From the NCBI GenBank assembly GCA_963705305.1, contig OY970067.1, positions 209,714-273,713 on the forward strand: a stretch of DNA of 64,000 nt, given 5' to 3'. Positions 10,591 through 24,086 of the stretch are shown piece after piece. The DNA comes from an uncultured Methylomirabilota bacterium (GTDB lineage Bacteria > Methylomirabilota > Methylomirabilia > Methylomirabilales > 2-02-FULL-66-22). The position numbers and the translations under genes are program-made. Numbering within the stretch: position 1 is the stretch's first letter; each line of letters starts with the position of its first letter. Under the pieces are notes generated by a model. The model had not been told where the DNA came from and made no database searches. It saw only the letters and a program-made list of their open reading frames with translations.

Positions 10591-12135
10591 TCACGCGTTC
10601 TGCTCCTGCGTGAGTGCGCGCCTGACCGCAGGCTTCAGGGCAACGAGCCCAAGCAGGCCCGCGATGATGTCGAAGATGCCAGCGATATAGAACGGAACCT
10701 GGAAGCTGCCCCCAAGGAATGCAACCAGCACTGCGGCCCCCCAGCCTCCGAGAATGGCCGAGAATCCCTTTGACGTGTACAAGATCCCATAGGTCGCCGT
10801 GACATACCTGGGGCCGAACACATCGCCGAGGCACGCGGGGATCAGCGCGGAGGTTTCTCCCCAGGACAGGAACACGATGGGTAGAAGCACGACGAAGAGT
10901 ATGGGCATGCCAGTAATCTGGGTGACCAGCAGAATGAGCAGTCCCTCGAGGGAGAAGGCGATGGCCATCGTGTTCTCCCGGCCAATCCTATCGGATACTG
11001 ACCCCCACATGATCCGGGAGAGCGAATTGGCGACCCCACCGATCGTCGCGGTGAAGGCTACGAGGGAGATCCCGAGCAGCTTCACGCTCTGGACGTTGAG
11101 CGATCGGGCGAGCTCGGACATGTGCCCAATTGTCATCAGGCCACCCGTGGTCATCACGAGGAACTGGAAGTACATGATGTAAAACTCCCGCCGGCCGAGC
11201 GACTGTTGCCAGGTGTAGTTCACCTTGGACTGGAGGACGCTGCCCGACGCCTTCGGTACCCACCCGGCCGGTGTCCACCCTTCGGGAGGATGCCGCAGAA
11301 TCATCGCCATGGCGAAGGCGACCACTCCCAAGATCACCCCCCAGATTGCCATCGCGTGCGCCCAGCCCATGGAGGTGATGCTTTCTAGCCGTTACACAAA
11401 GGTGTTGATAACGGTCGGCGTTTCGCTAGTAACGGCATGAATTGGTTGACCGAATCGGAACGCCTTGTCGGGGAAGAAATCTTCCTCGATGTCAGCTCAA
11501 TCCGAAAAGGACGGAATGCGCTGTAACCACAGAGGAATCGCGCCTATTGACAAGCGAATCTTCAACACCTTTGTGTAGCGGGTAGTGATGCTTTTGGAAA
11601 TGGGAATGATGGTCAGGGCGGCCCCCCCGCCAAATCCAGCGCTTGTGAGGCCGGTTGCCAGTCCCCGCCGATCCGGGAACCACTTGACGGCATTGCCGGC
11701 TGCTGCAATATATATGATCCCTGCCCCTGTGCCCGTGAGGAAACCGTAACAGAGGTAGAGGCCAAATACCGACTGGACCATCGCGCCGCCGAGGAGCCAC
11801 CCGACGAGGATCATGCACGACCCGATCGCCATGAGCGTCCGAATCCCGAATCGATCTACCAGGATCCCAGCGATGGGGACTGGCCAAGTCTGAAAGAGGA
11901 TGTACAGGGAGAAGATGACCGCAATTTCGGAGTACGGGACCCCCGCAAACTGCTGTTTTAGACCCGGTGTAAAGAGGGTGAACGCATACTGATAGTTGGA
12001 TATCACCATCATCGAAATGACCCCGGCACACAGTTGCACGACCCGGTTTCCCCTAAACGAACCGAAGAGTTCTTTTGCGAGGTCCTGGCCTGTCGCTGCA
12101 ACCGCCTCGATTCGGCCTGTGGTCCCGTTCACCAT
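10591..12135 (-). pseudogene. MFS transporter (oxalate/formate antiporter-like) interrupted by a 201-bp MITE
   Basis: The N-terminal ORF (11497..12135) and C-terminal ORF (10591..11370) are both MFS-like. Removing 11385-11585 plus one 9-bp duplication restores ...IPISKSIT-SMGWAHAMAIW... in frame. Confidence 0.8.
11385..11585 (+). mobile_element. MITE-1 copy a (201 bp, non-autonomous)
   Basis: About 24-bp TIRs: CTAGCCGTTACACAAAGGTGTTGA / TCAACACCTTTGTGTAGCGGGTAG. Perfect 9-bp direct repeat TGATGCTTT at 11376-11384 and 11586-11594. 194/201 identical to the reverse complement of 54373-54573. Confidence 0.9.
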
Positions 12136-12707
12136 GACCGGCCTCCTTTCAAGTCCTCAGGACTTGATCGAGAGCACCTCCGCCCCGAAACCCTTCGCAA
12201 ACCGAAGGAGAAACAATTGAAAGCGAAGCAAAACCTCCAAAAACGACGCGCATCCGTACCTGCACATGGAAGTCAACGACCAGCGTCGAAGTCGACCCTA
12301 AGAGGGTCGATCTCGAGCCCTACCGAAACATATGGTCTCGGATGCGAGGACAAATGAGTCGTGCACAGGTCCTCTGTAGTCCCAGGGGGCCTGGCATCTG
12401 ACATGGCGGGAACATTGGCCCGAAGGAGAATAGGAGCGATAGAAGATGGTAGCGACGTGCATTTCGGCAGCGAGCGATGCCACGCCCTGTTTTGCCGATC
12501 TATCTTGCAGCCGGCAACTCCTCGATAGCTTCATAGTTGCGTTCAGCCTGGGGATTGGCTAATCCTTGTAGTACCGGGATTTTCCTTGCGGCAGGTCGAG
12601 GGCGAGGGCGCCACCGAATTCAGGAACCCAAACCCCCCAGATCTTGCGATATGTCCGCCGCCCTATCCTTAATGCTCTTTCCGATCTCCCTGAGTTTCTC
12701 ATCAATG

Positions 12708-13092
12708 AAGGGCCCTGGCAATTCGCGCAAATTGCGGCAGCGCTAACCGCGCGACACCTGCCGTTTCCATCCTCCGATGACACCGGCCTTCAATAACACA
12801 ACAGCCCCTGGGGATCCGTGATCCACCGGGGGCCGTAGGGTTCGCACGCCAGGAGCTTTCCGGCCGGCATCGTTGCCTCCTTCAGGCCGCCTTGCTGGGC
12901 ACCGAATTCATTCGGGCCAGACGCTACCGCTCATCGGAGGGGGAAGTCAAGGTGCAAATGTGGAAAGACGGAGGTCAGAGGTCCCTGATCAGCCGTCAGT
13001 GGTCAGAGATCAGCCGTGAGCGGTTAGCCATCAGCCGAGGAATGACCACGGACCGCTGACTATCGTCAAGGTGCTGGGGGACGTCCCCTTTT
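12708..13092 (-). repeat. A-type miniature element, copy A1 (degenerate left terminus, conserved A core, low-complexity tail, ACGTCCCC right terminus)
   Basis: The core at 12795-12960 aligns with 17690-17870 and 23330-23480. The right end GGGGGACGTCCCCTTTTCA (13076-13094) matches the E-type right termini. Confidence 0.65.
12804..12833 (-). terminator. terminator-like hairpin inside A1 (minus strand)
   Basis: GC-rich hairpin GCCCC..GGATC-CGT-GATCC..GGGGC, followed on the minus strand by the U-rich GUUGUGUUAUUG. Confidence 0.35.
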
Positions 13093-13126
13093 CACGGCCG
13101 GGTGAGGCCTCATCCCCTGCCGTTCG

Positions 13127-13582
13127 TCAGCTCTCGACGCGCTCCCATGTGAGCGAGGACTCGAGGACACCCACGGGCAGTGGAGGCGCAAGCCGTAGCA
13201 CCAGCCGATTGCCGGTAAAGGTGAAGAGCCGCTTCCGGTCCGTCCCGACCGCGTTGGGGACCTTGTCGAGCTCCACATGGTGGACCACGGATCCCTCCCC
13301 GGCGTCTACGTCGTAGGTGCCACAATAGGCCACAAGACCGTTCATGGCTGACCTGATCTCCTGCTCGGCGGGATTGCTTGGGATCACCCACTTTGGTCGA
13401 GCCGGATTCATGAGGACGGCGCACATCCGCTTGGCATCGATGTACATCAAGTAGCCGACGCCGTTCGGGCCGAGATCGGGGCTCGGGCGCGTCGTCCCGT
13501 CGGCCATGAGCTGTTCGGTCGAAACCAGGCGCCACACCCCGATGAACTGCCTTGCCACAGCATCTTGGGATCGTGCCCGCAT
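13127..13582 (-). CDS. lipocalin-like domain protein
   Basis: FIGVWRLVS motif typical of the lipocalin-like domain. ATG 13582 has ACGGAGGGG upstream; the ORF-track start at 13636 is probably too long. Confidence 0.55.
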   Translation of the reverse strand: MRARSQDAVARQFIGVWRLVSTEQLMADGTTRPSPDLGPNGVGYLMYIDAKRMCAVLMNPARPKWVIPSNPAEQEIRSAMNGLVAYCGTYDVDAGEGSVVHHVELDKVPNAVGTDRKRLFTFTGNRLVLRLAPPLPVGVLESSLTWERVES

Positions 13583-13753
13583 CTGTGCCCCTCCGTTTGG
13601 GAGATGACGGCTAACGAAAGAAGTTAACCGGCCCACCCGGCGACCGGGCGATGGGTGGAGAAGAGAAAGGTGAAGGACGGAAACATGAAACCCGACACCA
13701 CCGGTCGGGCCCGAGTTGAACGATGGGTTCCGTGCGCCATGGACGCGCGCTCC

Positions 13754-14206
13754 CTAGAGCCAGCGCCGTACATCATTCTTGTAATGAACCCAGGCTGAGC
13801 CAAACGTACGAGCCAACCAAGGTTCTTCGGCGTGAATGACGCGGAAATGGAAGGCGAAGGCCACCAAGACCGTGTAGACGAGTAATCCGCGCGACCCAAA
13901 CGCGGACGACCAGCCGAGAAGGACGAAGATGACGGCAATGTACATGGGGTTCCGCGAATAGCGATAGAGGCCGCTCGTCACCAGGTGTTTGGGTGGCGCC
14001 CACGGGGCGAGTGTCCCTTTGCCCGAGACATAGAAATCGCGGACGCACCAGAGAAGCGCCAGAAAGCCGATGCCCAGCGGGATCAAGCCCAAAGGATGAA
14101 GGAGCGCAGTGTGTGAGCTACGCCAAAGCCAGGCGAGGGGAACAAGGATCCCGACCACGCCTGGTAGTGCGAGGAAGGCTAGAACTGCACGTGGGAACAT
14201 GTGCAC
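13754..14206 (-). CDS. isoprenylcysteine carboxyl / phospholipid methyltransferase family membrane protein
   Basis: TSGLYRYSRNPMYIAVIFVLLGW motif and multiple TM helices. Start is GTG 14206 or ATG 14200. Confidence 0.75.
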   Translation of the reverse strand: MHMFPRAVLAFLALPGVVGILVPLAWLWRSSHTALLHPLGLIPLGIGFLALLWCVRDFYVSGKGTLAPWAPPKHLVTSGLYRYSRNPMYIAVIFVLLGWSSAFGSRGLLVYTVLVAFAFHFRVIHAEEPWLARTFGSAWVHYKNDVRRWL

Positions 14207-14242
14207 CTACCGACCGCGCTCACTCGCCGTCGCTTATCACCT

Positions 14243-14300
14243 GGGACGTCGCCAATTTCACCAACTTGCTGGCGAAACGGCCGCAACCCGTCTTCCGTGC
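14243..14300 (+). repeat. solo A-type left terminus
   Basis: GGGACGTCGCCAATTTCACCAACTTGC aligns with 17612- (GGGGACGTTGCCAATTTCGTCAACTCGC) and 23244-. No recognisable A core follows it. Confidence 0.5.
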
Positions 14301-14554
14301 CTGCAGATGGGCACGCAGCATCGTCTATCAAATGACGGTACTACCTGCCCCGTCATGCCCCGTCAAGGCCGCTTGGACGGTCCGGGCGCCCTCCACCGGA
14401 CGATGCTACCGGGGCTAGAGCGGCGCGCCATCCTTCAGGATGGCACGGACCGCACGGATCTCGTAGTCCGCCTCGCGGTGCCGTCGCGTCCATCCCCTGC
14501 CGCCGGCGCGCCAGGAGTGTCCGGGTGCAACGCCCTCCATTTCCGGTCGAGTGA

Positions 14555-14586
14555 CCTGCCCCCTCGAAAATGGGGGGCGGTTTTCG
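14555..14586 (+). terminator. intrinsic-terminator-like hairpin (plus strand)
   Basis: CCUGCCCCC-UCGAAAAU-GGGGGGCGG followed by UUUUCG. No plus-strand gene lies upstream. Confidence 0.3.
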
Positions 14587-14602
14587 ACTCGCCCCTCCTC
14601 CT

Positions 14603-15796
14603 CTACTTATAGTGGATTGAGCCGACGGTGTGCTTGGCGATGTAATCCCAGTTATAGGAGACTCCCAGACCGGGCCCCTGGGGAATCGGAACGCAACCCG
14701 CTGCATCGATCCCGTCGAAATCCCCGTCCGCGTAGCCGTCCGTGTACAGGCCCTCGGTGTAAAAGGGATGCGAATGCCGGTCGATCTTCGGATGGACCAG
14801 CCCCCATTCGTAGTAGTTGGAATTGCGGATTGCCGCGAGGCAATGGCGGGTCGGGGGATCCCCCAGATGAATCTCCACATCGATGCCGAGGCTCTCGGCG
14901 GCGTGGGCGAGTTTCATCGTCCCGGTGATCCCGTCCAGCCTCACATCGCCCCGCACGAAATCCGTCGCCTCGGCGAGGAGGACGTTCATCCGTTGTTCTA
15001 CGCCGCGGACATGCTCTCCCTGGAGGAGGGGGGTCTTGATCATCTGGCGCAATCTCCGGTGCGCGAAGTTGGATTGCCCCATGTCCTGGAAGGGATCTTC
15101 CAGCCAGAAGAACCCCTCCTCGTCGCAGGCCCGCCCGACCTTCAGGGCCTCCCCGAAGGTCGCATAGGCATTGGCCGGATCGAGCATCAGGTCCATCCGG
15201 CCCCCCACGCGCTTCCCGACCGCGTGGATCAGCGCGACCTCGCGGGCAATCGGGCCCTGCCACCACGGATGAATCTTGAACCCGCGGTAGCCCTTCTCGA
15301 GGCAGACCTGGGCGAAATCGGCAAAGGCCTCTGGAGAATCCAGGCCGCCGCGCTCATCGCCGAAAGCCGTGCTCGCATACACGGGGAGCTTCTGTCGGAA
15401 CCCCCCCAGCAGCTCGTAGATCGGCGCGCCATAGTACTTTCCCGCGATGTCCCAGAGCGCGATATCCACCGGCGCACTGCCCATGCGTCCGAGATGCCTG
15501 AGGATCCGGTTGACCTCGTTGTAGATCTTCTCCCGCTCTAGCGCGTTCTGACCAATGACAATTGACGCAATCCCCGCCATGGCGGCTGGCTCGATGACGG
15601 TGAAGGTCGATACGTATTCTCCCGTGATGCCGGCGTCTGTATGGATCTTGATGGCGTGCGACTTCCGACGAGTCACGGTGCCGGGCTCGTACACTTCTCG
15701 GGTCTCCAGCGTGCCAAAGTCTCGTCTCTCGCGCTCAAACTCGCAGAGTTCGATCCCGGTGATCTTGAGGTTTCTCTGGGCTGTCGCGTCTGTCAT
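14603..15796 (-). CDS. enolase-superfamily enzyme (mandelate racemase / muconate lactonizing enzyme family)
   Basis: Typical MR/MLE architecture (KIHTDAGITGE..., FKIHPW, MLDPANAY, WLEDP, GEH). ATG 15796 with GGAAGGAG RBS. Confidence 0.85.
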   Translation of the reverse strand: MTDATAQRNLKITGIELCEFERERRDFGTLETREVYEPGTVTRRKSHAIKIHTDAGITGEYVSTFTVIEPAAMAGIASIVIGQNALEREKIYNEVNRILRHLGRMGSAPVDIALWDIAGKYYGAPIYELLGGFRQKLPVYASTAFGDERGGLDSPEAFADFAQVCLEKGYRGFKIHPWWQGPIAREVALIHAVGKRVGGRMDLMLDPANAYATFGEALKVGRACDEEGFFWLEDPFQDMGQSNFAHRRLRQMIKTPLLQGEHVRGVEQRMNVLLAEATDFVRGDVRLDGITGTMKLAHAAESLGIDVEIHLGDPPTRHCLAAIRNSNYYEWGLVHPKIDRHSHPFYTEGLYTDGYADGDFDGIDAAGCVPIPQGPGLGVSYNWDYIAKHTVGSIHYK

Positions 15797-16063
15797 CCAA
15801 GTGCTCCTTCCGCCATGAACCGCGGGGCTCGAAAGTGGTTCGTCGGGGGGCCCGACCGGTTGCCCGTCGGCACGCGGCGAGACCGGCTCCGCCATTCGGA
15901 GGGTGCCGCGCCCGCCCTGCCGGGTGACTCAAAGAGGGTGGCAGTTCCAGGAGAATTGGCAAGCCCTGTGGGGCCGTGCACCGCGCACAGCTCACGTCAT
16001 CCTACGAGGCGTTCCCTGGACGCGAGCGAGAGCATAGCCCGCACCCGGTGCGAGTGCAAGCAA

Positions 16064-16312
16064 TACGGCGCGTTGGATTAATTGTCATATCTTGCCGCCG
16101 CCCGCCTCGCCAGGCTTCGGTACGCGGAATGCGGCGGCCTGCGAGGCATCCGTACCGTGATTGTGCCAGGGCTGGAGTGCTGGATCATCTTCCGAGACGA
16201 TCGGGGCCGCGCGGAATTCGGTTTCTGGCGGCTTGGCAAGGCCTTGCTTCGCTGTTGCTGAGGACACTGTCGCTGAGGATACTTGACAAATAAAGAGAAC
16301 GTCTCTCATCAC
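16064..16312 (-). repeat. E-type miniature element, copy E5 (most diverged)
   Basis: Termini GTTGGATTAATTGTCATATCTTG / GAGAACGTCTCTCATC. The core aligns with E1-E4, e.g. GTGATTGTGCCAGGGCTGGAG and GGCCGCGCGGAATTCGG. Confidence 0.6.
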
Positions 16313-16707
16313 ATCCGCGGCAGGGGCTTCACATCGGCGTCGGCACCCGCCGACCGCTCAACCGGATACCCGCATCGCACCCATGCCTCCATGCCGCCTT
16401 CGAGGTTGTAGACCCGCTCGCCGCCGAGCAAGGCGAGAACCTCGGCGCCGAGGGCGCTGATTGCTCCAATGCGGCAGACCACCACGATGTCGCGCTCGAG
16501 GGCGAGCTCGGCGTGGTGCTTGAAGAGCTCGTCTACCGGAAGGTTCCGGGCCCCGGCGATATGCCCCTGGGCGTACTCCCCCGGCAGGCGCACATCCACC
16601 ACCTGGGCCCCGCCCGTCTCGATGAGGGGTCGGGCGTCCGAAACCTCGATCCGGCTGAAGGGCTCCTCGGGGTCAGCCTCCCCCCCTCCCAGGGGACCGG
16701 TCCTCAT
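16309..16707 (-). CDS. rhodanese-like domain protein (sulfurtransferase)
   Basis: VVDVRLPGEYAQGHIAGARNLP and active-site loop VVVCRIGAIS. The start was chosen at ATG 16707; upstream ORF extension is high-GC read-through. Confidence 0.8.
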   Translation of the reverse strand: MRTGPLGGGEADPEEPFSRIEVSDARPLIETGGAQVVDVRLPGEYAQGHIAGARNLPVDELFKHHAELALERDIVVVCRIGAISALGAEVLALLGGERVYNLEGGMEAWVRCGYPVERSAGADADVKPLPRM

Positions 16708-16807
16708 GACTCCCGCGTCCTTCTTTCTCCCCTTTCGCCCGGACTTCGTTTCCCGGCGGCTTGCCAGAAACTCGCTTTGGTGCCGCTGAAGATATGATTT
16801 TGCTAGA

Positions 16808-17467
16808 TCAGCCCTTCCGCGCTGAGGCATCCAGCATCGCCTGGAGCAGCGTTTCCGGCGGCTGCGCTCCGGACACCGCGGCGCGGCGATTGAAGATGAA
16901 GCAGGGCACCGCGTTGATGCCGGCCTGCCGGGCTTCGAGGTCGACTCGCAACACGTCCTCCCGGCCGTCCTCGGACGCCAGGTAGGAGGCCAAAGCGGCG
17001 CGATCCAGGCCGGCACGCTCGCCGACGCTCGCCAGCGCCGCCTGGTCGGTGAGGTCGGCGCCATCCAGGAAATAGGCGCGGAAGAGCCGCTCCGCGACCG
17101 CGTCTTCATGCCCCTGCGTCGCACCGTAGAGCATGAGCCGGTGCGCGTTCAGCGTGTTCGGCTGCACCGTGATGCGGTCGAAGGCGAAGTCGATACCGAC
17201 TTCCCGGCCCACGCCCGCCACGCGCGCGTAGCTGTGGGCGTGGCCGGGGCCGAACTTGCGCTCGAGGTAGTCCTGGCGCGGCATGCCCGCGTCCGGCAGG
17301 TCCGGGTTGAGCTGGAACGGCAGCCAGCGCACGGCCGGCTTTCCCCCATCGGGCACGCGCTCCTGGTATAGCCGCAGTGCGGCTTCCAGGCGCCGCTTGC
17401 CGATGAAGCACCAGGGTCAGACGATGTCCGAGACGATTTCGATGGTAAGCGTGGGTTGAGCTTGCAT
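16808..17467 (-). CDS. DsbA/FrnE-like thiol-disulfide oxidoreductase with in-frame TGA at the CxxC Cys position (candidate selenoprotein, or a pseudogene)
   Basis: ATG 17467 (GAAAGGA RBS) gives MQAQPTLTIEIVSDIV-TGA(17419-17417)-PWCFIGKRRLE.... Both halves are in the same frame. The family consensus at this position is SD.VCPWC.IGK. Confidence 0.6.
17362..17415 (-). promoter_or_regulatory. candidate bacterial SECIS element
   Basis: It starts 1 nt after the UGA. Closing helix CCUGGU/ACCAGG encloses hairpin GCGGC-GCCUGGAA-GCCGC (17396-17379), whose loop carries GG about 30 nt after the UGA. Confidence 0.4.
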
Positions 17468-17607
17468 GCGCCGGTCCTTTCTGCTGGGAGTGGCCCCGAT
17501 GTGTCCTGGCGCGGCGTGCGGGGTGCCGGACGGGGCCATTATACCGTCGGAAGGGGCCTTTGTGGATCTCTTCATGGCCGCGAGCGTTCTTGCTCGTAAT
17601 GGACGCA

Positions 17608-17940
17608 ATGGGGGACGTTGCCAATTTCGTCAACTCGCGACGGCAACGGTCACGCCCACTCACCGCGCCTCTATCTTTCAGGGACACCGGCCTCTACGAA
17701 CCCAACAGCCCCCTGGGATCCCGTGATCCGCCGGGGGCTGTTGGGTTCGCACGCCAGGAGCTTTCCGGTCGGCATCTTCGCCTCCCTCAGGCCACCTAGC
17801 TGAGAGCGAATTGATTGCGACATGACGCTACCGCCTGTCGGAGGGCGAAGTCAAGATGGAAATGCGGGGGCCAGAAATCGGCTTTCAGAAATACGGGACG
17901 CCGCATTCCCTCCCAGACTTTGCCAACGTCCGCCTCGCGA
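17608..17940 (-). repeat. A-type miniature element, copy A2 (TIR-bounded, about 330 bp)
   Basis: Left end AATGGGGGACGTTGCCAATTTCGTC versus the reverse complement of the right end GAGGCGGACGTTGGCAAAGTCTGG. The core is shared with A1 and A3. Confidence 0.7.
17699..17747 (-). terminator. long hairpin / terminator-like structure inside A2
   Basis: AACCCAACAGCCCCC..GGATC-CCGT-GATCC..GGGGGCTGTTGGGTT forms a stem of about 20 bp. The minus-strand 3' flank is only weakly U-rich. Confidence 0.35.
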
Positions 17941-18182
17941 GGTTCCCGCAAGCAGAACTCGATGGCCTGCGAGCCCTCCACAAAGTGATGGTGCCAGGCC
18001 TGGAGTTTCGGATCATTTTCTGGGAGGACACGGACCGTGCAGATTTCGTTCTCCGCCGGCAAGCCGGGACCCCGCGCTGGTACCGATGGAAAGATTCGAC
18101 GGAGAATGCTACGTCTCCTCTTTCGGCGATACGCGGGGAGGTCGTTAGCAATTAGGACAATTAGGCCACAACGTCCCTTTTA
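17941..18182 (-). repeat. E-type element core, copy E1 (left terminus replaced by A2)
   Basis: Nearly identical to 20430-20667 over about 230 nt. The right end is GGCCACAACGTCCCTTTT. Confidence 0.75.
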
Positions 18183-18190
18183 CGCGGTTC

Positions 18191-18357
18191 ACAATTCCGG
18201 CGTACGAGAACGCGTGAGGACCCGCCCCGGGCCGGGAGGCGCGGCTGACTCTGCATGGGGTGGCCCCGGACCCCACGCCCGCAGGCTCCTCTGCCGCCGG
18301 GGCGCCCGGAGTGCCGGGAGGCTGCCTCCCTCCGAGAAGTTGTTTCAGAACCTACGT
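18191..18357 (+). repeat. F repeat copy 1 (relic of an MFS gene 3' end plus downstream hairpin)
   Basis: ACAATTCCGGCGTACGAGAACGCGTGAGG...GGGAGGCTGCCTCCC...CAGAACCTACG matches 19673-19767, with a roughly 70-nt internal insertion. Confidence 0.7.
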
Positions 18358-18360
18358 CCC

Positions 18361-18415
18361 GTATTACGTTGGTCTCGTCGGGAGGATTTGACAGATAATG
18401 CAACGTCCCCCATTA
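18361..18415 (-). repeat. solo E-type terminus
   Basis: GACAGATAATGCAACGTCCCCCATT is the inverted counterpart of the E-type left termini (GGGG.CG.TGCATTATCTGTC). No core is attached. Confidence 0.6.
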
Positions 18416-18431
18416 CTGAGGCCGAGGGACG

Positions 18432-19709
18432 ATGCGCCGCCCGCCGATCCGACCTCGCCTGCGGCCGCCACCGGCGGGATCCCCGGGACCGGCCGGCATG
18501 CGTGAAGCGCCCGCCTTCCCGGGGCCGGCCCGATCCCGGGCGGTCGTGGTGACCGCCCTGGGGACGGCCCAGACCTTGGCCTGGGCGTCAAGCTACTACC
18601 TGCCGGCGATCCTCGCCCATCCGATTGCCGCGGGGCTGGGCGTCCCGCACGCGTGGGTCTTCGCGGCCTTCTCGGCCGCCCTGCTCATCGCCGCCCTTGC
18701 CGGCCCCGTCGTGGGGCGAGGGATCGATCGCCACGGGGGGCGGGGCGTGCTCGTCCTCTCGAACCTGGTGTTCGCCGGCGGACTGCTCGCGCTCGCCGCG
18801 GCCACGGGCCCCCTCAGTCTCTTCGGGGCCTGGGCGGTGCTCGGCGTCGGGATGGCGCTGGGGCTGTACGACGCCGCGTTTGCCACGCTGACAAACCTCT
18901 ACGGCCGCGCGGCCCGCGGCCCAATTACCGGCATCACCCTCTTCGCCGGTTTCGCGTCGACGGTGAGCTGGCCGGTGTCCTCGCTCCTGATTGATATGCT
19001 GGGGTGGCGCGAGACCTGCCTCGTCTGGGCCGCCCTCAACCTGGGAATCTGCCTTCCGCTCAATCGCTTCCTCGTGCCGCTCGCCACGGAGCAGGCGCCT
19101 CCGCGCCGCGTGCCGGGAGCCCGGGTGGGGTGGAAGCCGCGCAGGGAGATGTTCCTGCTCGCCTTCGTGTTCGGGGCCGCCTGGTTCGTCACCGGCTCGA
19201 TGGCGGCCCACCTGCCGCGCCTCCTCGAACGGGCGGGGGCGACGCCCCTCCGGGCGGTCGCCATTGCCGCGCTGGTCGGGCCGGCCCAGGTCGCCGCGCG
19301 GCTGGCCGAGTTCTTCCTTTTGAAACGGACACACCCGGTGGTCTCGGCGAGGATCGCGACGACGCTCCACCCCATCGGCGCGGTCGCCCTGGCCTGTTGT
19401 CCGGGCCCCCTGGGGACAGTGAGCTTTACTGTCCTGTACGGGGCCGGGAATGGCCTGCTAACGATCGCTCGGGGCACGGTCCCGCTCGCCATCTTCGGTC
19501 CTCACGGCTATGGCGAGCGCACCGGCCTCCTCGGCGCCCCCGCCCGCGCCGCCCAGGCGTGCGCCCCGCTGGTGTTCGGGCTCTTGTTTGACGCCATGGG
19601 GCTTGCAGTCATCCTGGTCTCGGCGGGATTGAGCCTGGCCGCGCTGGGCGCCCTGCTGTGTCTGCGCGCAACCCCGGATCGGACAATTCCGGCGTACGAG
19701 AATGCGTGA
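18432..19709 (+). CDS. MFS transporter
   Basis: 425-aa ORF with about 12 hydrophobic segments. GAGGGA RBS; an alternative start is M23 at 18498. Confidence 0.8.
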   Translation: MRRPPIRPRLRPPPAGSPGPAGMREAPAFPGPARSRAVVVTALGTAQTLAWASSYYLPAILAHPIAAGLGVPHAWVFAAFSAALLIAALAGPVVGRGIDRHGGRGVLVLSNLVFAGGLLALAAATGPLSLFGAWAVLGVGMALGLYDAAFATLTNLYGRAARGPITGITLFAGFASTVSWPVSSLLIDMLGWRETCLVWAALNLGICLPLNRFLVPLATEQAPPRRVPGARVGWKPRREMFLLAFVFGAAWFVTGSMAAHLPRLLERAGATPLRAVAIAALVGPAQVAARLAEFFLLKRTHPVVSARIATTLHPIGAVALACCPGPLGTVSFTVLYGAGNGLLTIARGTVPLAIFGPHGYGERTGLLGAPARAAQACAPLVFGLLFDAMGLAVILVSAGLSLAALGALLCLRATPDRTIPAYENA

Positions 19710-19767
19710 GGGCCCGCCCCGGGCCGGGAGGCTGCCTCCCCTCGAGAAGCTGCTTCAGAACCTACGG
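19673..19767 (+). repeat. F repeat copy 2 (overlaps the last codons and stop of the MFS gene)
   Basis: Direct repeat of 18191-18357. It encodes ...TIPAYENA-TGA and then the GGGAGG-CTG-CCTCCC hairpin. Confidence 0.7.
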
Positions 19768-19890
19768 CCTTATTCGATGGCTCAAGACTTCCCGCAACCG
19801 CAGAGCGACCGGAGTCGGCCTGGCGAATTCCCCGGCCGCATCTGCTATACTCCCGGCAAATCTGCGGCCCATTCCTACTGGAGGGCGCCC

Positions 19891-20385
19891 ATGGACGAAC
19901 CGGTATTCATCGAGTCACGGGACGAGATGGAGCAGATCCTGCGGGAGGAGGTGCTGGGTCACCTGGGCCTCGCGGGCGACGGGCAGCCGTACGTGGTGCC
20001 CGTCAATTACGCCTACCTGGCCGGGAGGATCCTGTTCCACTGCGCGCTCGCGGGCCAGAAGCTCGACGCCATCCGCCGCAATCCCCACGTCTGTTTTACC
20101 GTCAGCCGGCAGCGGGGGGAGATGCGGGACCACACCGGCGCCCCCTGCCACATCGACAGCGACAGCGTGATCTGCTACGGCCGGGCGAGGCTCCTCGAGG
20201 ACCTCACGGAGCGGGCCGCCGCGCTGAACGCCTTCAACCGCCGCTACCGGCCCGATGCGCCCGATCTCCCGGTGGATCGGGTGGCGCAGTGCATGGCAGT
20301 CGAGATCACGATTGCCGTGATGACCGGGCGGCGGGAGCGAGACCGCCACCGCACGTACTGGCGCGCCATCTTCCATCCGCAATAG
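19891..20385 (+). CDS. pyridoxamine 5'-phosphate oxidase family (FMN-binding split barrel) protein
   Basis: ATG 19891 with GGAGGG RBS. MDEPVFIESRDEMEQILREEVLGHLGL..DGQPYVVPVNYAY is typical of the family. Confidence 0.8.
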   Translation: MDEPVFIESRDEMEQILREEVLGHLGLAGDGQPYVVPVNYAYLAGRILFHCALAGQKLDAIRRNPHVCFTVSRQRGEMRDHTGAPCHIDSDSVICYGRARLLEDLTERAAALNAFNRRYRPDAPDLPVDRVAQCMAVEITIAVMTGRRERDRHRTYWRAIFHPQ

Positions 20386-20667
20386 GGGCCGCTGCATTAT
20401 CTGTCCTGCCGGCGCCCGTCCCGCCAGCCCGCGCCAGGCGCAACTCGACGGCCTGCGAGCTCTCCACAACGTGATGGTGCCAGGCCTGGAGTTTCGGACC
20501 ATTTTCTGGGAGGACACGGACCGTGCAGATTTCGTTCTCCGCCGGCAAGCCGGGACCCCGCGCTGGTGCCGATGGAAAGATTCGACGGAGAATGCTACGT
20601 CTCCCCTTTCGGCGACACGCGGGGAGGTCGTCAGTGATTAGGACAATTAGGCCACAACGTCCCCTTT
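20381..20667 (-). repeat. E-type miniature element, copy E2 (complete)
   Basis: Termini AATAGGGGCCGCTGCATTATCTGTC / GGCCACAACGTCCCCTTT. The core is almost identical to E1. Confidence 0.75.
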
Positions 20668-20951
20668 TCATGAGATTCGGTGACGGACAAGGGCAATTCG
20701 GCTAGCAGTCTGTCGAAGTCACCCAAATACCTCTCGAAGAGATCGATAAAGAATCCGACGTAGGCAGCTATATTATCCGGCCAATCGAGATGCGCACGAT
20801 GAGACTGCACCTCACCTTGGAGTCCCTTGAGGGTCTCGATGCACTTGGCAGTTTCAGCCCGCCAATCTCGGATGTGCGCAAGGATCGTGTCCATGGAGAC
20901 ACCGGTGTAATCAGTCATCCCAGCCATGAGAGAACGCTCTCTGACAGTCAT
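20631..20951 (-). CDS. hypothetical protein (106 aa); the C-terminal 13 codons and stop come from element E2
   Basis: ATG with GGAGGA RBS and lower G+C than the surroundings. No recognisable domain. Confidence 0.5.
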   Translation of the reverse strand: MTVRERSLMAGMTDYTGVSMDTILAHIRDWRAETAKCIETLKGLQGEVQSHRAHLDWPDNIAAYVGFFIDLFERYLGDFDRLLAELPLSVTESHEKGTLWPNCPNH

Positions 20952-21067
20952 TGGCCGTCAATCCTCCGCCCCAACTCCACGAAAAATAATCCTTTGCGTG
21001 GCAAGCTGCACGTAGAACAGCACCCCGACCGGTGCCGGGTGGAGTCGAGCATACCAATAAAGCAGTG

Positions 21068-21297
21068 CTGAGGGAGGCCGCACTATTTGTAATATGCCGC
21101 CGCCGCCCGCCTACCAGGCTCTTCTAGACAGGACTTGATGGCACGTAATGCCTCCACTCCGTGATGGCGTCAGGACTGGATCCGCGGATCGTTTGCCAAA
21201 GGGCACAGGCCGCGCGGATTTCGTTCCCTAGCGACCTGCCGGGATCCCACTTCGGTGCTGTTGGAAAGATTCCACAGATAATGCTATTTCCCCCATT
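21068..21297 (-). repeat. E-type miniature element, copy E4
   Basis: Termini GAGGGAGGCCGCACTATTTGT / AATGCTATTTCCCCCATT. The core aligns with E1-E3 with substitutions and 1-nt indels. Confidence 0.65.
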
Positions 21298-21318
21298 ACA
21301 GGAATCAACCCATTATCT

Positions 21319-22152
21319 TCAGGCAATTCGTGCTAAAGCCTTTGCTGCGATCGCCTTATAGGCGAGCGCCTCCATGAGACTGTCCTCGGTGCCAAAGAGG
21401 GTATATGCGTCAATGTTCATGAGCGAAAGTCTCTCAAGGAAGGGACCGCGCTGACTTCTTGGGAGCCGATATTTCACAAGAACATCCTGATGGGCATCGG
21501 CTTTTTGAAACACTTCCTCGTGACTAGCGTAACTGCACCAACTATTCCGGATGACCCTGCAAATCGTGTACTCGCTCTGCTGCCGGAAATGCAGGGGAGT
21601 AGTTACGATATTGGGCCCCAGCCCCATAATATGTGGCTCATTCTCATCCCATATCTTCGCTTCCCCCGTATATTCCTGAAAGTAATAGACGGCGACTTCC
21701 TCATCAGGATCTTCGTGGGTCCTCTTTGCACATGCTGCCGATCGGAAAGCAAAGAAAGCAGCGACATATGGAGACTCCGACCAGTCGAGAAGCGGAGACG
21801 GGAATCCGTGATGTCTTAGGTAGACCATGAATTCGTATCCAAAAGGTGCCTGGTAAGGTTCCGGCCCCTCCTCTGGGTATGCGCCGATGTCCCAGCGTTT
21901 CTCCGTCACAGACTCGACGGGTTTCTGGAGAAAGTTGCGGAGCACCCTCCAGCATTCCTTCGTCGTATACGGGTGGTCCGTATACCTCTCTAGCGTCGTT
22001 TTTAGCGGCCAGGAGGCCTTCTCTTGCCCCCGAAATAGAGGCGGGGGGATATAGAGACCCGGAGCCTTCTTGCATGTCTCCGAATACCGACGCAAAACCT
22101 CACCGACCGCGCGCCCAAAGTCCTCCCAACTCGAAAGCACTAATTCTTTCAT
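21319..22152 (-). CDS. FRG domain-containing protein
   Basis: PPLFRGQEKASWPLKTTLER matches the FRG-domain signature. AGGAAA RBS. G+C is visibly lower than the window average. Confidence 0.75.
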   Translation of the reverse strand: MKELVLSSWEDFGRAVGEVLRRYSETCKKAPGLYIPPPLFRGQEKASWPLKTTLERYTDHPYTTKECWRVLRNFLQKPVESVTEKRWDIGAYPEEGPEPYQAPFGYEFMVYLRHHGFPSPLLDWSESPYVAAFFAFRSAACAKRTHEDPDEEVAVYYFQEYTGEAKIWDENEPHIMGLGPNIVTTPLHFRQQSEYTICRVIRNSWCSYASHEEVFQKADAHQDVLVKYRLPRSQRGPFLERLSLMNIDAYTLFGTEDSLMEALAYKAIAAKALARIA

Positions 22153-22163
22153 TGAATTTTCCT

Positions 22164-22383
22164 ATGGTGAGAGACGTCGCATTACTTGTCATATTTTGTC
22201 GGATCCACCAAGCGGATGGATGGCCAGCTAGCCCTCTACGGCGTGATGGTGCCAGGACTGGAGTTTCGGATCATTTCCTGGGAGAACACGGGCCGCGCGG
22301 ACTTCATTTCCTGGCGGCTTGCCGGGACCACGCCCTGGTGTCGATGGAAAGATTCGACAAACAATGCAACTTCCCCTGTCATT
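22164..22383 (-). repeat. E-type miniature element, copy E3
   Basis: TIRs GAGAGACGTCGCATTACTTGTC / GACAAACAATGCAACTTCCCCTG (15 of 21 positions match). The conserved core includes GTGATGGTGCCAGGACTGGAGTTTCGGATCATTTCCTGGGAG. Confidence 0.7.
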
Positions 22384-22405
22384 CACCCGATCGGATCGTT
22401 CCTAG

Positions 22406-23104
22406 TCAATGAATCCAGGCCACCCGGAATGGTTTCTGCCAGTCGTACTGAACTACCGGAACCACCCGAGAGAGACCAGCAGCTTCAATAAGAAGTTTGT
22501 AGTCCTTCAAAAGGCGCTCCAAAAGATCGAGACACGCGTCAAGATCTCCGTAGGTCGGCAAGTGCCGCATTGGGTGCATACTGCGGTGCGCCACATGCCT
22601 GTTCACAAAGCGTCGCAGCTTTCTTTCTGCCGCAAGGAGTTCGCGCTCGTGTTTGCGAACTACAGCAGGATTGATTTGGTCCGTACCCCTTTTTGCATAG
22701 TGCTCAAAGGATCGATTCCCCAACGTCCGCATCCGTCCCGAGCGATAGAGGCCAACATAGCGGCGCCGGCTAATTACCTCGGGATGGTCTCTGACGTCCT
22801 GGATTAGCCTGAGTAGTGAAATTGAGCGGCTGTCTTTGTCCGTCTGTCGCCTGATGGCGACCGCCATGTCAGCCACGTACGCGCGGTTCATCCAACTGTA
22901 GAAGACGCTGGGCACCTGAAGTTCGGGATTGGAGGCAATCATTGCCTGGACTTCCCGGTACACGTGGCGGTCGAGCGCCATCTCGACAATCTCGTCATAG
23001 ATGCACCGAAGCCAGCGCTTCCAGCGCAGATATACGCTGCGCCGTCTGGATGCAGACGTGATCGCCTGAGGCTTCGGGGGGGCCTTTTTCCTCTTCCTGC
23101 TCAT
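22406..23104 (-). CDS. hypothetical protein, possibly HEPN/Abi-like
   Basis: 232 aa with a basic N-terminus and an Rx4H-type motif, RFVNRH(VAHR). Lower G+C, GAGG RBS. The domain call is weak. Confidence 0.45.
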   Translation of the reverse strand: MSRKRKKAPPKPQAITSASRRRSVYLRWKRWLRCIYDEIVEMALDRHVYREVQAMIASNPELQVPSVFYSWMNRAYVADMAVAIRRQTDKDSRSISLLRLIQDVRDHPEVISRRRYVGLYRSGRMRTLGNRSFEHYAKRGTDQINPAVVRKHERELLAAERKLRRFVNRHVAHRSMHPMRHLPTYGDLDACLDLLERLLKDYKLLIEAAGLSRVVPVVQYDWQKPFRVAWIH

Positions 23105-23235
23105 GCTGACCTCGTCTGGCTGCGGCGGACCCGAACGATTAGATCAGAACTCCTTTGGGCGACCGGTGGCCGTTCGATTTGACCGTCCGCTGGCGTATGG
23201 CACCCACTACCTAGCCCTTGTTTAAGGGGACGCGT

Positions 23236-23713
23236 ATTTGATGGGGGACGTTGCCACTTTCGTCACGTTGCCGCAAGCATCATGCATCGCTGGGCGCGTG
23301 CCATCCTCCCAGGTTCCCGTTCCTACAAAAACACAACAACCCCATAGGATCCCAAGATCCGCCGGGGACTGTCGGGTTCGCACGCCAGGAGCTTTCCGGT
23401 CGGCATCTTCGCCTCCTTCAGGCCGCCTAGCTGGTGTCTGAATTCATTCGGGCAAGACGCTACCTCTCACCGGAGGGGGAAGGCAAGGGAAAAATACAGA
23501 GGACGGGGGACCGGAGACGGGAGACAGAGGTCAGGAGTCAGAGGTCGGGGGTCGGGGGTCAGCCAAGGAATGACTACGGACCACGGACCTGGGACAGGGG
23601 ACCGAGGACCGGAGACGAGGGAGGGGAGACGGCCAGAGGATGACCACAGACTACTGACTACTGACCACGGGCCAGAGAGGGGAAAGGGCCTCCAGCCAGG
23701 AGAGGGACCAAAC
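23236..23713 (-). repeat. A-type element, copy A3, with a long purine-rich low-complexity tail
   Basis: Left terminus GATGGGGGACGTTGCCACTTTCGTC and core at 23330-23480. The tail (23480-23713) holds GGACCGGAGACG and GACCAC(A/G)GAC-type repeats. Another left-type terminus starts at 23714. Confidence 0.6.
23340..23367 (-). terminator. terminator-like hairpin inside A3 (minus strand)
   Basis: Hairpin CCCC..GGATC-CCAA-GATCC..GGGG, followed on the minus strand by GUUGUUGUGUUUUUGUAGG. Confidence 0.4.
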
Positions 23714-23849
23714 AGGGGGACGTACGCAATTTATTCAACTTACGTGGAGGCTACCATGAAAATCCATCATGGCATGTTCGATTTTCATGGTACGTTTCGA
23801 TCAATCCCCCGGTTGTTGACGACAGGCCGAATTGGGTGGATTCCAGCGC

Positions 23850-24086
23850 CTAGGCCGCATCCAGGGTGTAAACGGGCACCTCCGCGACACGGCTGGGGGT
23901 CGGCTCGGACGCCAGCAGGGCCTCAATGCGCTTCACCGTCTCTGCCGAGAACGTCTCCTCCCCGCACTGCCTGCACACTAGCGCCGGCACCTGCTCAATC
24001 GAGACGAGCTTTCCGTGAACGTCGGCGGTGAAGGTCACCCGCCTGGAATCCTCGGTTCCTCCGCATACCGGACACCTACTATCCAT
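23850..24086 (-). CDS. YgiT-type zinc-finger protein (MqsA-N-like; putative antitoxin)
   Basis: CPVCGG...CRQCGE zinc-ribbon pattern. ATG 24086 with GGAGGA RBS, overlapping the upstream gene by 8 nt. Confidence 0.75.
   Translation of the reverse strand: MDSRCPVCGGTEDSRRVTFTADVHGKLVSIEQVPALVCRQCGEETFSAETVKRIEALLASEPTPSRVAEVPVYTLDAA

Follow-up and report, generated by a model that had tools for sequence, protein, structure and literature searches.

The sequence at 17608-17940, on the minus strand ahead of a DsbA-like gene, raises the question of what kind of element it is and whether it acts on the gene that it precedes. An earlier note, made without database searches, had recognized it as one of three related copies (A1, A2, and A3) in the window, by which we mean the whole stretch of 64,000 nucleotides analyzed here, and had read these copies as a riboregulator-like or sRNA-like module. 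Our analysis places the A core in a new, genus-restricted RNA or leader family of a familiar kind, the lineage-specific sRNA or leader repeat.

Extent and distribution of the A family

The presence of three copies in the window is confirmed by a three-way alignment, in which a block of approximately 170-190 nt is held in common on the minus strand and terminates in a GC hairpin followed by a U-rich stretch. A repeat search of the window returned a 155-nt family, D3, at 12805-12959, 17710-17864, and 23341-23495 (65-83% ungapped identity), and BLAST aligned A1, A2, and A3 with one another over 165-186 nt at 82-85%. The A1 core occupies 12790-12951 on the minus strand, where the covariance model and the promoter motif place its promoter at 12951-12921 and its RNA and hairpin at 12919-12790. 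The A3 core occupies 23325-23487 on the same strand, with a promoter at approximately 23487-23457, the -35 of which is degenerate (TTGCCT), and RNA and hairpin at 23455-23325. Matches to the covariance model, which was built on the RNA part of the core and is called R1 here, fall within the window at 12790-12919, 17694-17823, and 23325-23455, all on the minus strand.

The source genome, G000, is a single contig of 5.65 Mb that is 98.9% complete, and a BLAST search of this whole genome found seven copies of the core in total, three of them within the window. Copies A1 to A6 form a subfamily specific to G000, with 78-93% mutual identity and unrelated flanks; the seventh copy, A7, is more diverged and lies on the plus strand of the contig at 1,862,018-1,862,178. 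The possibility that the core travels as part of a larger mobile unit was rejected, as the flanks of the seven genomic copies are unrelated past approximately 200-290 bp.

Outside G000, R1 matches occur at one to 11 copies per genome in 16 of the 21 species of the genus to which G000 belongs, the sole one in its family. At E<=1e-4, the matches cover 14 of these 21 species and none of the 67 other genera of the phylum. Named genomes scanned with a sequence pattern gave 14 matches, 11 of which are in MAGs labelled candidate division NC10, Methylomirabilota, or Methylomirabilales, with one further match labelled only as "uncultured bacterium"; the remaining two lie outside the phylum, in a Terriglobia MAG and a Streptomyces genome, with approximately one match expected by chance. 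A scan of metagenomes located the A core on at least 120 contigs, from which 70 further full-length matches were recovered.

The Rfam search proposed in the earlier note has now been run and, across the whole window, gave nothing that reached the gathering threshold, and Rfam 15 at E<=10 gave only chance-level matches over 12500-24000. Full-text searches of the literature gave no earlier account of the family. The reading of the A core as a strand-specific conserved unit resembling a short transcription unit is supported by these comparisons. What stands of the module proposed earlier is this predicted resemblance, with a promoter, a length of approximately 125 nt, a covarying hairpin, and a U-rich tail; no known RNA family accounts for it. 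With at least 117 distinct copies, metagenome contigs included, at a mean pairwise identity of 64%, the A core provides the first defined non-coding RNA or leader family for the uncultured NC10/Methylomirabilota lineage. For the annotation of MAGs, the analysis yields a covariance model, a promoter consensus (CTTGAC-N18-TAGCGT), and a REP/RAYT repeat; A-type elements are also likely to attract spurious ORFs from gene callers.

A second repeat family, here called E type, is also present in the window at 17921-18181, 20407-20667, and 22219-22377, with at least three copies at 81-96% identity, one of which adjoins the left end of A2.

Promoter, leader, and the genes ahead

The A promoter, a sigma-70-type promoter predicted at the sequence level, consists of CTTGACT, an 18-nt spacer, and TAGCGT. 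Conservation is at least 90% throughout its -35 hexamer and, in its -10, at T, A, G, and T, and TTGAC-N-TAnnGT is found in 100 of 116 copies. The related pattern CTTGAC-N19/20-TA[GC][CG]GT occurs at 34 sites genome-wide against 2.8 expected, an enrichment of approximately 12-fold, and 27 of the 34 sites belong to no A copy and mostly precede ORFs by 40-290 nt; examples on the G000 contig (C1) are 158241(-), 1108764(+), 1771962(-), and 4665640(+). The RNase P RNA gene, rnpB, is preceded by a promoter of the same type, CTTGAAT-N17-TATGCT, ending approximately 10 nt before the RNA. From these sites, CTTGAC(A/T)-N18-(G)TAGCGT appears to be the general, housekeeping-type promoter consensus of this lineage. 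Two candidate features of the spacer were rejected: the palindrome CCTC-N6-GAGG is paired in 74.0% of cells as compared to 74.2% in shuffles and is conserved merely as sequence and not as a hairpin, and a hammerhead-like string, CUGAUGAG, has no Rfam support. Tandem heptamers of the form GCTGA(C/T)(C/G), in three to eight units, lie directly upstream of the -35 in most A copies and are also found upstream of tmRNA. These heptamers, which are akin to the STRR repeats of cyanobacteria, are seen in the window at 12960-13060 and 23490-23640 (minus strand), at L213:1420-1500, and at many other loci upstream of the A promoter.

At the other end of the unit, the hairpins lie where the earlier note had located them. 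Its statement that pairing is kept while the stem sequence changes was based on three copies and is upheld by the further copies collected since, which show covariation on two alignments. The first alignment has 91.8% of its cells paired and 23 double-change cells, where shuffles give 7.9; an alignment of 113 sequences has 90.8% paired and 30 double-change cells, where shuffles give 12.7. In neither case did any of 500 shuffles reach the observed value. G·U pairs make up 180 of 1347 hairpin cells and are the commonest state of one pair. On the opposite strand these cells would become A·C mismatches, so that the helix is markedly better on the sense strand, and the strand favored by the hairpin agrees with the direction of the promoter. 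An extension of the hairpin by GAAC/GUUG was weak, with 36 of 500 shuffles reaching the observed value, and was rejected. The tails reported for A1 (GUUGUGUUAUUG) and A3 (GUUGUUGUGUUUUUG) were both found again. The tail consensus across copies is GUUGUGUUUCUG, also written GUUGUGUUU, which is U-rich yet interrupted, with a mean of 6.1 T per 15-nt window. Bulges in the stems and breaks in the T-runs kept a simple terminator scan from calling these hairpins.

The best conserved block of the 5' part is GGAGG-N6-8-GATGCC, with GATGCC as its core, which corresponds to a Shine-Dalgarno (SD) sequence and a start codon. A start codon is present in 110 of 117 copies (ATG in 104 and GTG in six) and an SD in 104 of 117, and the SD+AUG sits 39-42 nt before the hairpin. 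In 102 of the 110 copies the ORF has a length of 17 codons or more and thus extends into the 5' arm of the hairpin. One mark of leader-peptide attenuators is a short ORF, led by an SD, that abuts or overlaps a terminator; as to their other marks, regulatory codons and an antiterminator, no codon is enriched in the ORF, and neither an antiterminator nor any other conserved alternative pairing was found among the collected copies. Among the closest known systems are the pyrBI leader of E. coli and, more loosely, the trp, his, and leu leaders, in which, as predicted for A, a promoter is followed by an SD-led ORF overlapping an intrinsic terminator ahead of the gene. In the pyrBI type the sequence of the peptide is unimportant, and the A ORF likewise shows no selection on its peptide. 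In contrast to these leaders, A has no regulatory codons, pause site, or antiterminator hairpin that we could find, and the predicted A leader fronts dozens of unrelated genes.

The reading that we favor, tentatively and with somewhat less than even confidence, is that the A core is a portable cassette made up of a promoter and a leaky, possibly translation-sensitive attenuator, acting mainly in cis. On this view it is a short transcription unit, autonomous and copied into many intergenic locations, where it would serve as promoter and leader for the gene ahead. Polymerase starting at the A promoter would mostly stop at the hairpin, giving an RNA of approximately 125 nt, and the imperfect U-tract would allow a fraction to read through into the downstream gene. 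Ribosomes loaded at the SD+AUG and translating into the stem would block the hairpin, and the fraction reading through would increase with translation coupling, in the manner of pyrBI. The combination of a near-invariant SD+AUG with an unconstrained ORF that runs into the putative terminator suggests that ribosome loading may suppress termination in this way. Copies may have spread through REP-linked duplication or mobilization, and some would have become fixed ahead of certain genes and been retained in more than one species.

Evidence bearing on action in cis comes from the neighboring genes. The earlier note had expected a consistent relation between copies and downstream genes, and such a relation was found in orientation but not in function. 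With genes called by a crude GC3-based ORF filter, the nearest called downstream gene is co-oriented with the element in 69 cases and convergent in 10, with none called in 21, and the median gap is 208 nt. The genes themselves are diverse and include those for MFS proteins, DsbA together with rhodanese, HEPN-AbiU2 together with FRG, ABC and TRAP binding proteins, catalase, TPP enzymes, an aldehyde ferredoxin oxidoreductase-like protein, Zn-ADH, and a collagen-like basic protein; for part of this set, most names, that of the aldehyde ferredoxin oxidoreductase-like protein among them, were read by eye from N-terminal sequences. The distance from hairpin to start codon given earlier was reproduced, at approximately 230 nt in A2 and 221 nt in A3, and in the A7 type the start codon follows the tail after only approximately 60 nt. 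Several pairings of element and gene have been retained in more than one species, for example those with the collagen-like basic protein (A7, L059, L054, and L032), a peptide substrate-binding protein (L049/L037), a sugar-binding protein (L038/L040), and a lipoprotein common to L026 and L046. A role in cis is favored because of this orientation bias, the persistence of copies before the same genes across species, and the small gaps to some start codons. Three observations weigh against a role purely in cis: approximately 10 of 79 scorable copies face a convergent gene and therefore have no cis target, the gene behind A2 has its own conserved promoter (see below), so that this copy is at least not required for it, and an antiterminator is absent.

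The main alternative, which we consider unlikely but well worth weighing, is that the copies are sibling genes for trans-acting sRNAs. Each copy would be an independent sRNA gene producing an RNA of approximately 125 nt, the conserved single-stranded blocks of which (GAUGCCGG, GUGCGA, and UUCCCC) would pair with mRNAs or bind a protein, leaving the SD+AUG as an incidental feature or a decoy. Such a role fits a unit that is complete with predicted promoter and terminator and has a conserved core within flanks lacking homology, as well as the occurrence of up to 11 copies per genome in 14-16 species, the copies that face convergent genes, and the position of A2 upstream of a gene that does without it. 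The multi-copy layout is also akin to that of the Qrr1-5 RNAs of Vibrio, the LhrC1-5 RNAs of Listeria, and the csRNAs of Streptococcus. Like A, these are genus-restricted families with several paralogous RNA genes of approximately 100-130 nt per genome, in which each copy has a conserved promoter, conserved sequence blocks, and a terminator, which in A is putative. Unlike them, A is co-oriented with the next gene, and free-standing sRNA genes would not usually show a ratio of 69:10. The best conserved block of A is a canonical SD-spacer-AUG, where the known families carry an anti-SD seed. The genome also appears to lack the usual protein partners, as Hfq (PF17209) and CsrA (PF02599) had no matches in G000, whereas control genomes did match.

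Two genes show features of their own. The protein behind the A7-type copy, encoded at 1862245-1862598 (+) of C1 in G000 and approximately 60 nt downstream of that copy, is small and basic with a tail of collagen-like GXY repeats (PF01391), and it stands behind an A7-type copy in at least four species (orthologous at L054, L059, and L032). An MFS transporter gene in the window (10591-12135, minus strand) is split into ORFs of 212 aa and 259 aa by a gap at approximately 11370-11497, and both halves match MFS_1.

REP sequences and the DsbA locus

The earlier description of A2 as a core ending in a hairpin holds as far as it went, but it did not include the promoter, the short ORF with its SD+AUG, or the termini, which resemble the REP sequences of a RAYT system. 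The whole element, REP-like inverted repeats and core together, spans 17608-17940 on the minus strand. Its left repeat, GGCGGACGTTGGCAAAGTC, lies at 17916-17934 and agrees with the right repeat, taken as its reverse complement, at approximately 16 of 21 positions. The predicted promoter (17825-17855) consists of a -35 TTGACT at 17854-17849, an 18-nt spacer, and a -10 TAGCGT at 17830-17825, and is followed by the predicted RNA of approximately 125 nt at 17694-17823, a covariance-model match of 126.9 bits. An SD of GGGAGG (17786-17781) and an ATG (17775-17773) introduce a 34-codon ORF, MPTGKLLACEPNSPRRITGSQGAVGFVEAGVPER, that continues through the hairpin, the SD and ORF together covering 17671-17786. 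The GC-rich hairpin, a putative terminator or attenuator, occupies 17697-17749; in A2 the U-tail is degenerate and prolongs the stem instead. The right REP is found at 17610-17633 (minus strand) and reads GGGGACGTTGCCAATTTCGTCAA on the plus strand from 17611, the same motif that flanks Y1_Tnp/RAYT genes.

Throughout the genome, the REP motif GGGGACGTTGC[N] occurs approximately 169 times, where roughly 25 occurrences would be expected; in the window it is seen at 14242, 17611, 18388-18399, 23244, and 23716. Inverted REP pairs approximately 0.9-1.07 kb apart enclose Y1_Tnp (PF01797) genes, that is, RAYT genes, and such loci are present outside the window at G000 C1:480988-482086, 490215-491158, and 738437-739510. 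The hairpin GGGGACGTTGCC is the REP hairpin and a putative substrate of RAYT. The REP core, CGTCCCC, is located 25-120 nt past the A hairpin in 61 of 116 copies. The sequence TTGACGAAATTGGCAACGTCCCC downstream of the hairpin had also been considered as a sigma-54 or ECF promoter, but the spacings do not fit and it is the REP sequence flanking RAYT genes. The link between a REP/RAYT system and a cargo that carries a promoter, for which the evidence is circumstantial, would be an unusual aspect of the family. Correia elements of Neisseria and the REP/REPIN-RAYT systems of Pseudomonas and the enterobacteria are likewise short and intergenic, with inverted repeats at their ends as in A2, and place promoters or terminators beside host genes. 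Classical REPINs, however, are hairpins of approximately 100 bp without cargo, whereas A conserves a transcription unit of approximately 200 bp, and most A copies in other species have the REP core on one side only, the 3' side.

A comparison of the DsbA locus among relatives gives no support to A2 as a regulator of this gene. The gene has a promoter of its own, TCCACA-17-TATAAT at 17538-17566 (minus strand), which lies outside A2 and is conserved in the related genomes G005, G010, G013, and G014. The DsbA orthologues of these four genomes and of G004 keep the gene and its own promoter without an A core, and the sequence farther upstream is unrelated to A2. Homology between the loci of the relatives and that of G000 resumes just downstream of approximately 17590, immediately beyond the right REP of A2. 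Genome-wide, the A core was not found in G004, G005, or G013, and there is one match each in G010 and G014. The five orthologous loci without A2 indicate that A2 is a recent, REP-associated arrival rather than the ancestral control region of the DsbA gene. In G013 (L203, G013:C7), a different element of approximately 330 bp is found upstream of the DsbA orthologue at the site taken by A2 in G000, with perfect inverted REPs (GGGGACGTTGTTGACTCAATGGA) at its ends and its own TTGACT-N17-TAGCGT. The presence of these two elements at one DsbA-upstream site hints at a cassette-like exchange at REP sites.

The DsbA/FrnE-like gene itself (16808-17467, minus strand) contains an in-frame TGA in place of the first Cys codon of the CxxC motif. 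If this TGA is read as U, the product gives a full-length PF01323 match (E 5.8e-36) and is likely, by this reading of the sequence, to be a selenoprotein; a rhodanese-domain gene follows.

These findings bear most directly on a further explanation, that A is a selfish or neutral repeat. An ancestral 5' region captured beside a REP would have been multiplied by RAYT or by recombination, and any effects on neighboring genes would be incidental. The REP within 130 nt downstream in 61 of 116 copies, the inverted REP-like repeats around A2, the young six-copy subfamily in G000, the different REP-bounded element at the DsbA-upstream site of G013, and the many mosaic intergenic repeats of G000 would all be in keeping with such an origin. 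We nonetheless regard it as improbable, as compensatory changes preserve the hairpin, the promoter hexamers and the AUG are near-invariant despite a mean identity of only 64% between copies, and orthologous copies are retained in different species. The 69:10 bias in orientation likewise implies selection on what the A unit does.

If the favored reading of A as a portable promoter and attenuator is true, with a strong promoter, a translation-sensitive attenuator, and REP-linked spread, the family would offer a clear case in nature of portable regulatory modules that shape gene expression. A more far-reaching proposal, to which we assign a distinctly low probability, is that the RAYT/REP system disperses a cargo of promoter, uORF, and attenuator that rewires neighboring genes across the genus, and/or that the RNA of approximately 125 nt represents a new class of trans-regulator in a lineage lacking Hfq and CsrA.

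Coding and folding of the leader

The peptide encoded by the short ORF has the consensus MPAGKLLACEPDGP, and it is conceivable that the unit is simply a gene for a small protein of approximately 26-35 aa (MPAGK/R-I/L-L/M-A/V-C-E-P-D-G-P-L-G...). A good SD at the right spacing, the near-invariant ATG, and the length of at least 17 codons in 102 of 110 copies are what such a gene would show. A coding signature was absent, however: pN/pS was 0.75 in the ORF frame, compared with 0.84 and 1.00 in the two others and 0.90±0.16 in column shuffles; a coding test on 36 sequences had the same outcome, and third codon positions show no entropy peak in the short ORF. Indels between the ATG and the hairpin, that is, within the first 14 codons, are present in 37 of 113 copies, and seven of 117 copies have no start codon. 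The frame past the hairpin loop varies among copies because the length of the loop varies by one nucleotide. Moreover, the putative terminator lies inside the ORF, so that terminated RNAs would carry no stop codon. We therefore consider a small-protein gene very unlikely.

A type I toxin-antitoxin arrangement with an ORF on the opposite strand was also rejected, as the reverse complement of the consensus contains no conserved start and the sense peptide is not hydrophobic. The Sib/Ibs ("QUAD") and Ldr/Rdl ("LDR") repeats of E. coli are, like A, multi-copy intergenic repeats with a small RNA and a short ORF; A differs from them in having no conserved start or ORF on the opposite strand and in encoding a sense peptide that is neither hydrophobic nor under coding constraint.

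The first approximately 85 nt of the predicted RNA have no supported fold. MFE folds of the leader vary from copy to copy without a shared structure, RNAalifold retained the 3' hairpin alone and no 5' structure, and an all-against-all scan for excess pairing detected nothing besides this hairpin. Four candidate 5' helices, P1, P1b, P2, and P3 (SD/anti-SD), were rejected, as none exceeded shuffle controls among 113 sequences. The structured, riboswitch-like sensor domain that could be read into the earlier note is not borne out by these results. Although the layout of promoter, conserved region of approximately 85 nt, terminator, and gene would suit a riboswitch or another ligand- or protein-sensing leader controlling the terminator, possibly of a new class as no known class matches, the lack of any covarying 5' helix, the variable folds, the absence of a common pathway among the downstream genes, and the missing antiterminator make this the least probable of the explanations considered.

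A different leader was encountered behind other TAGCGT promoters of G000, at six loci (L206-L211) located at C1:931313+, 1852341-, 1917897+, 2184036-, 3790967+, and 182389-. These sites share a similar leader sequence (CCCTGCCGT...GGTTCTCCC..TCGG), which has no Rfam match at E<=0.01 and may represent a second unannotated RNA or leader family, unrelated to A.
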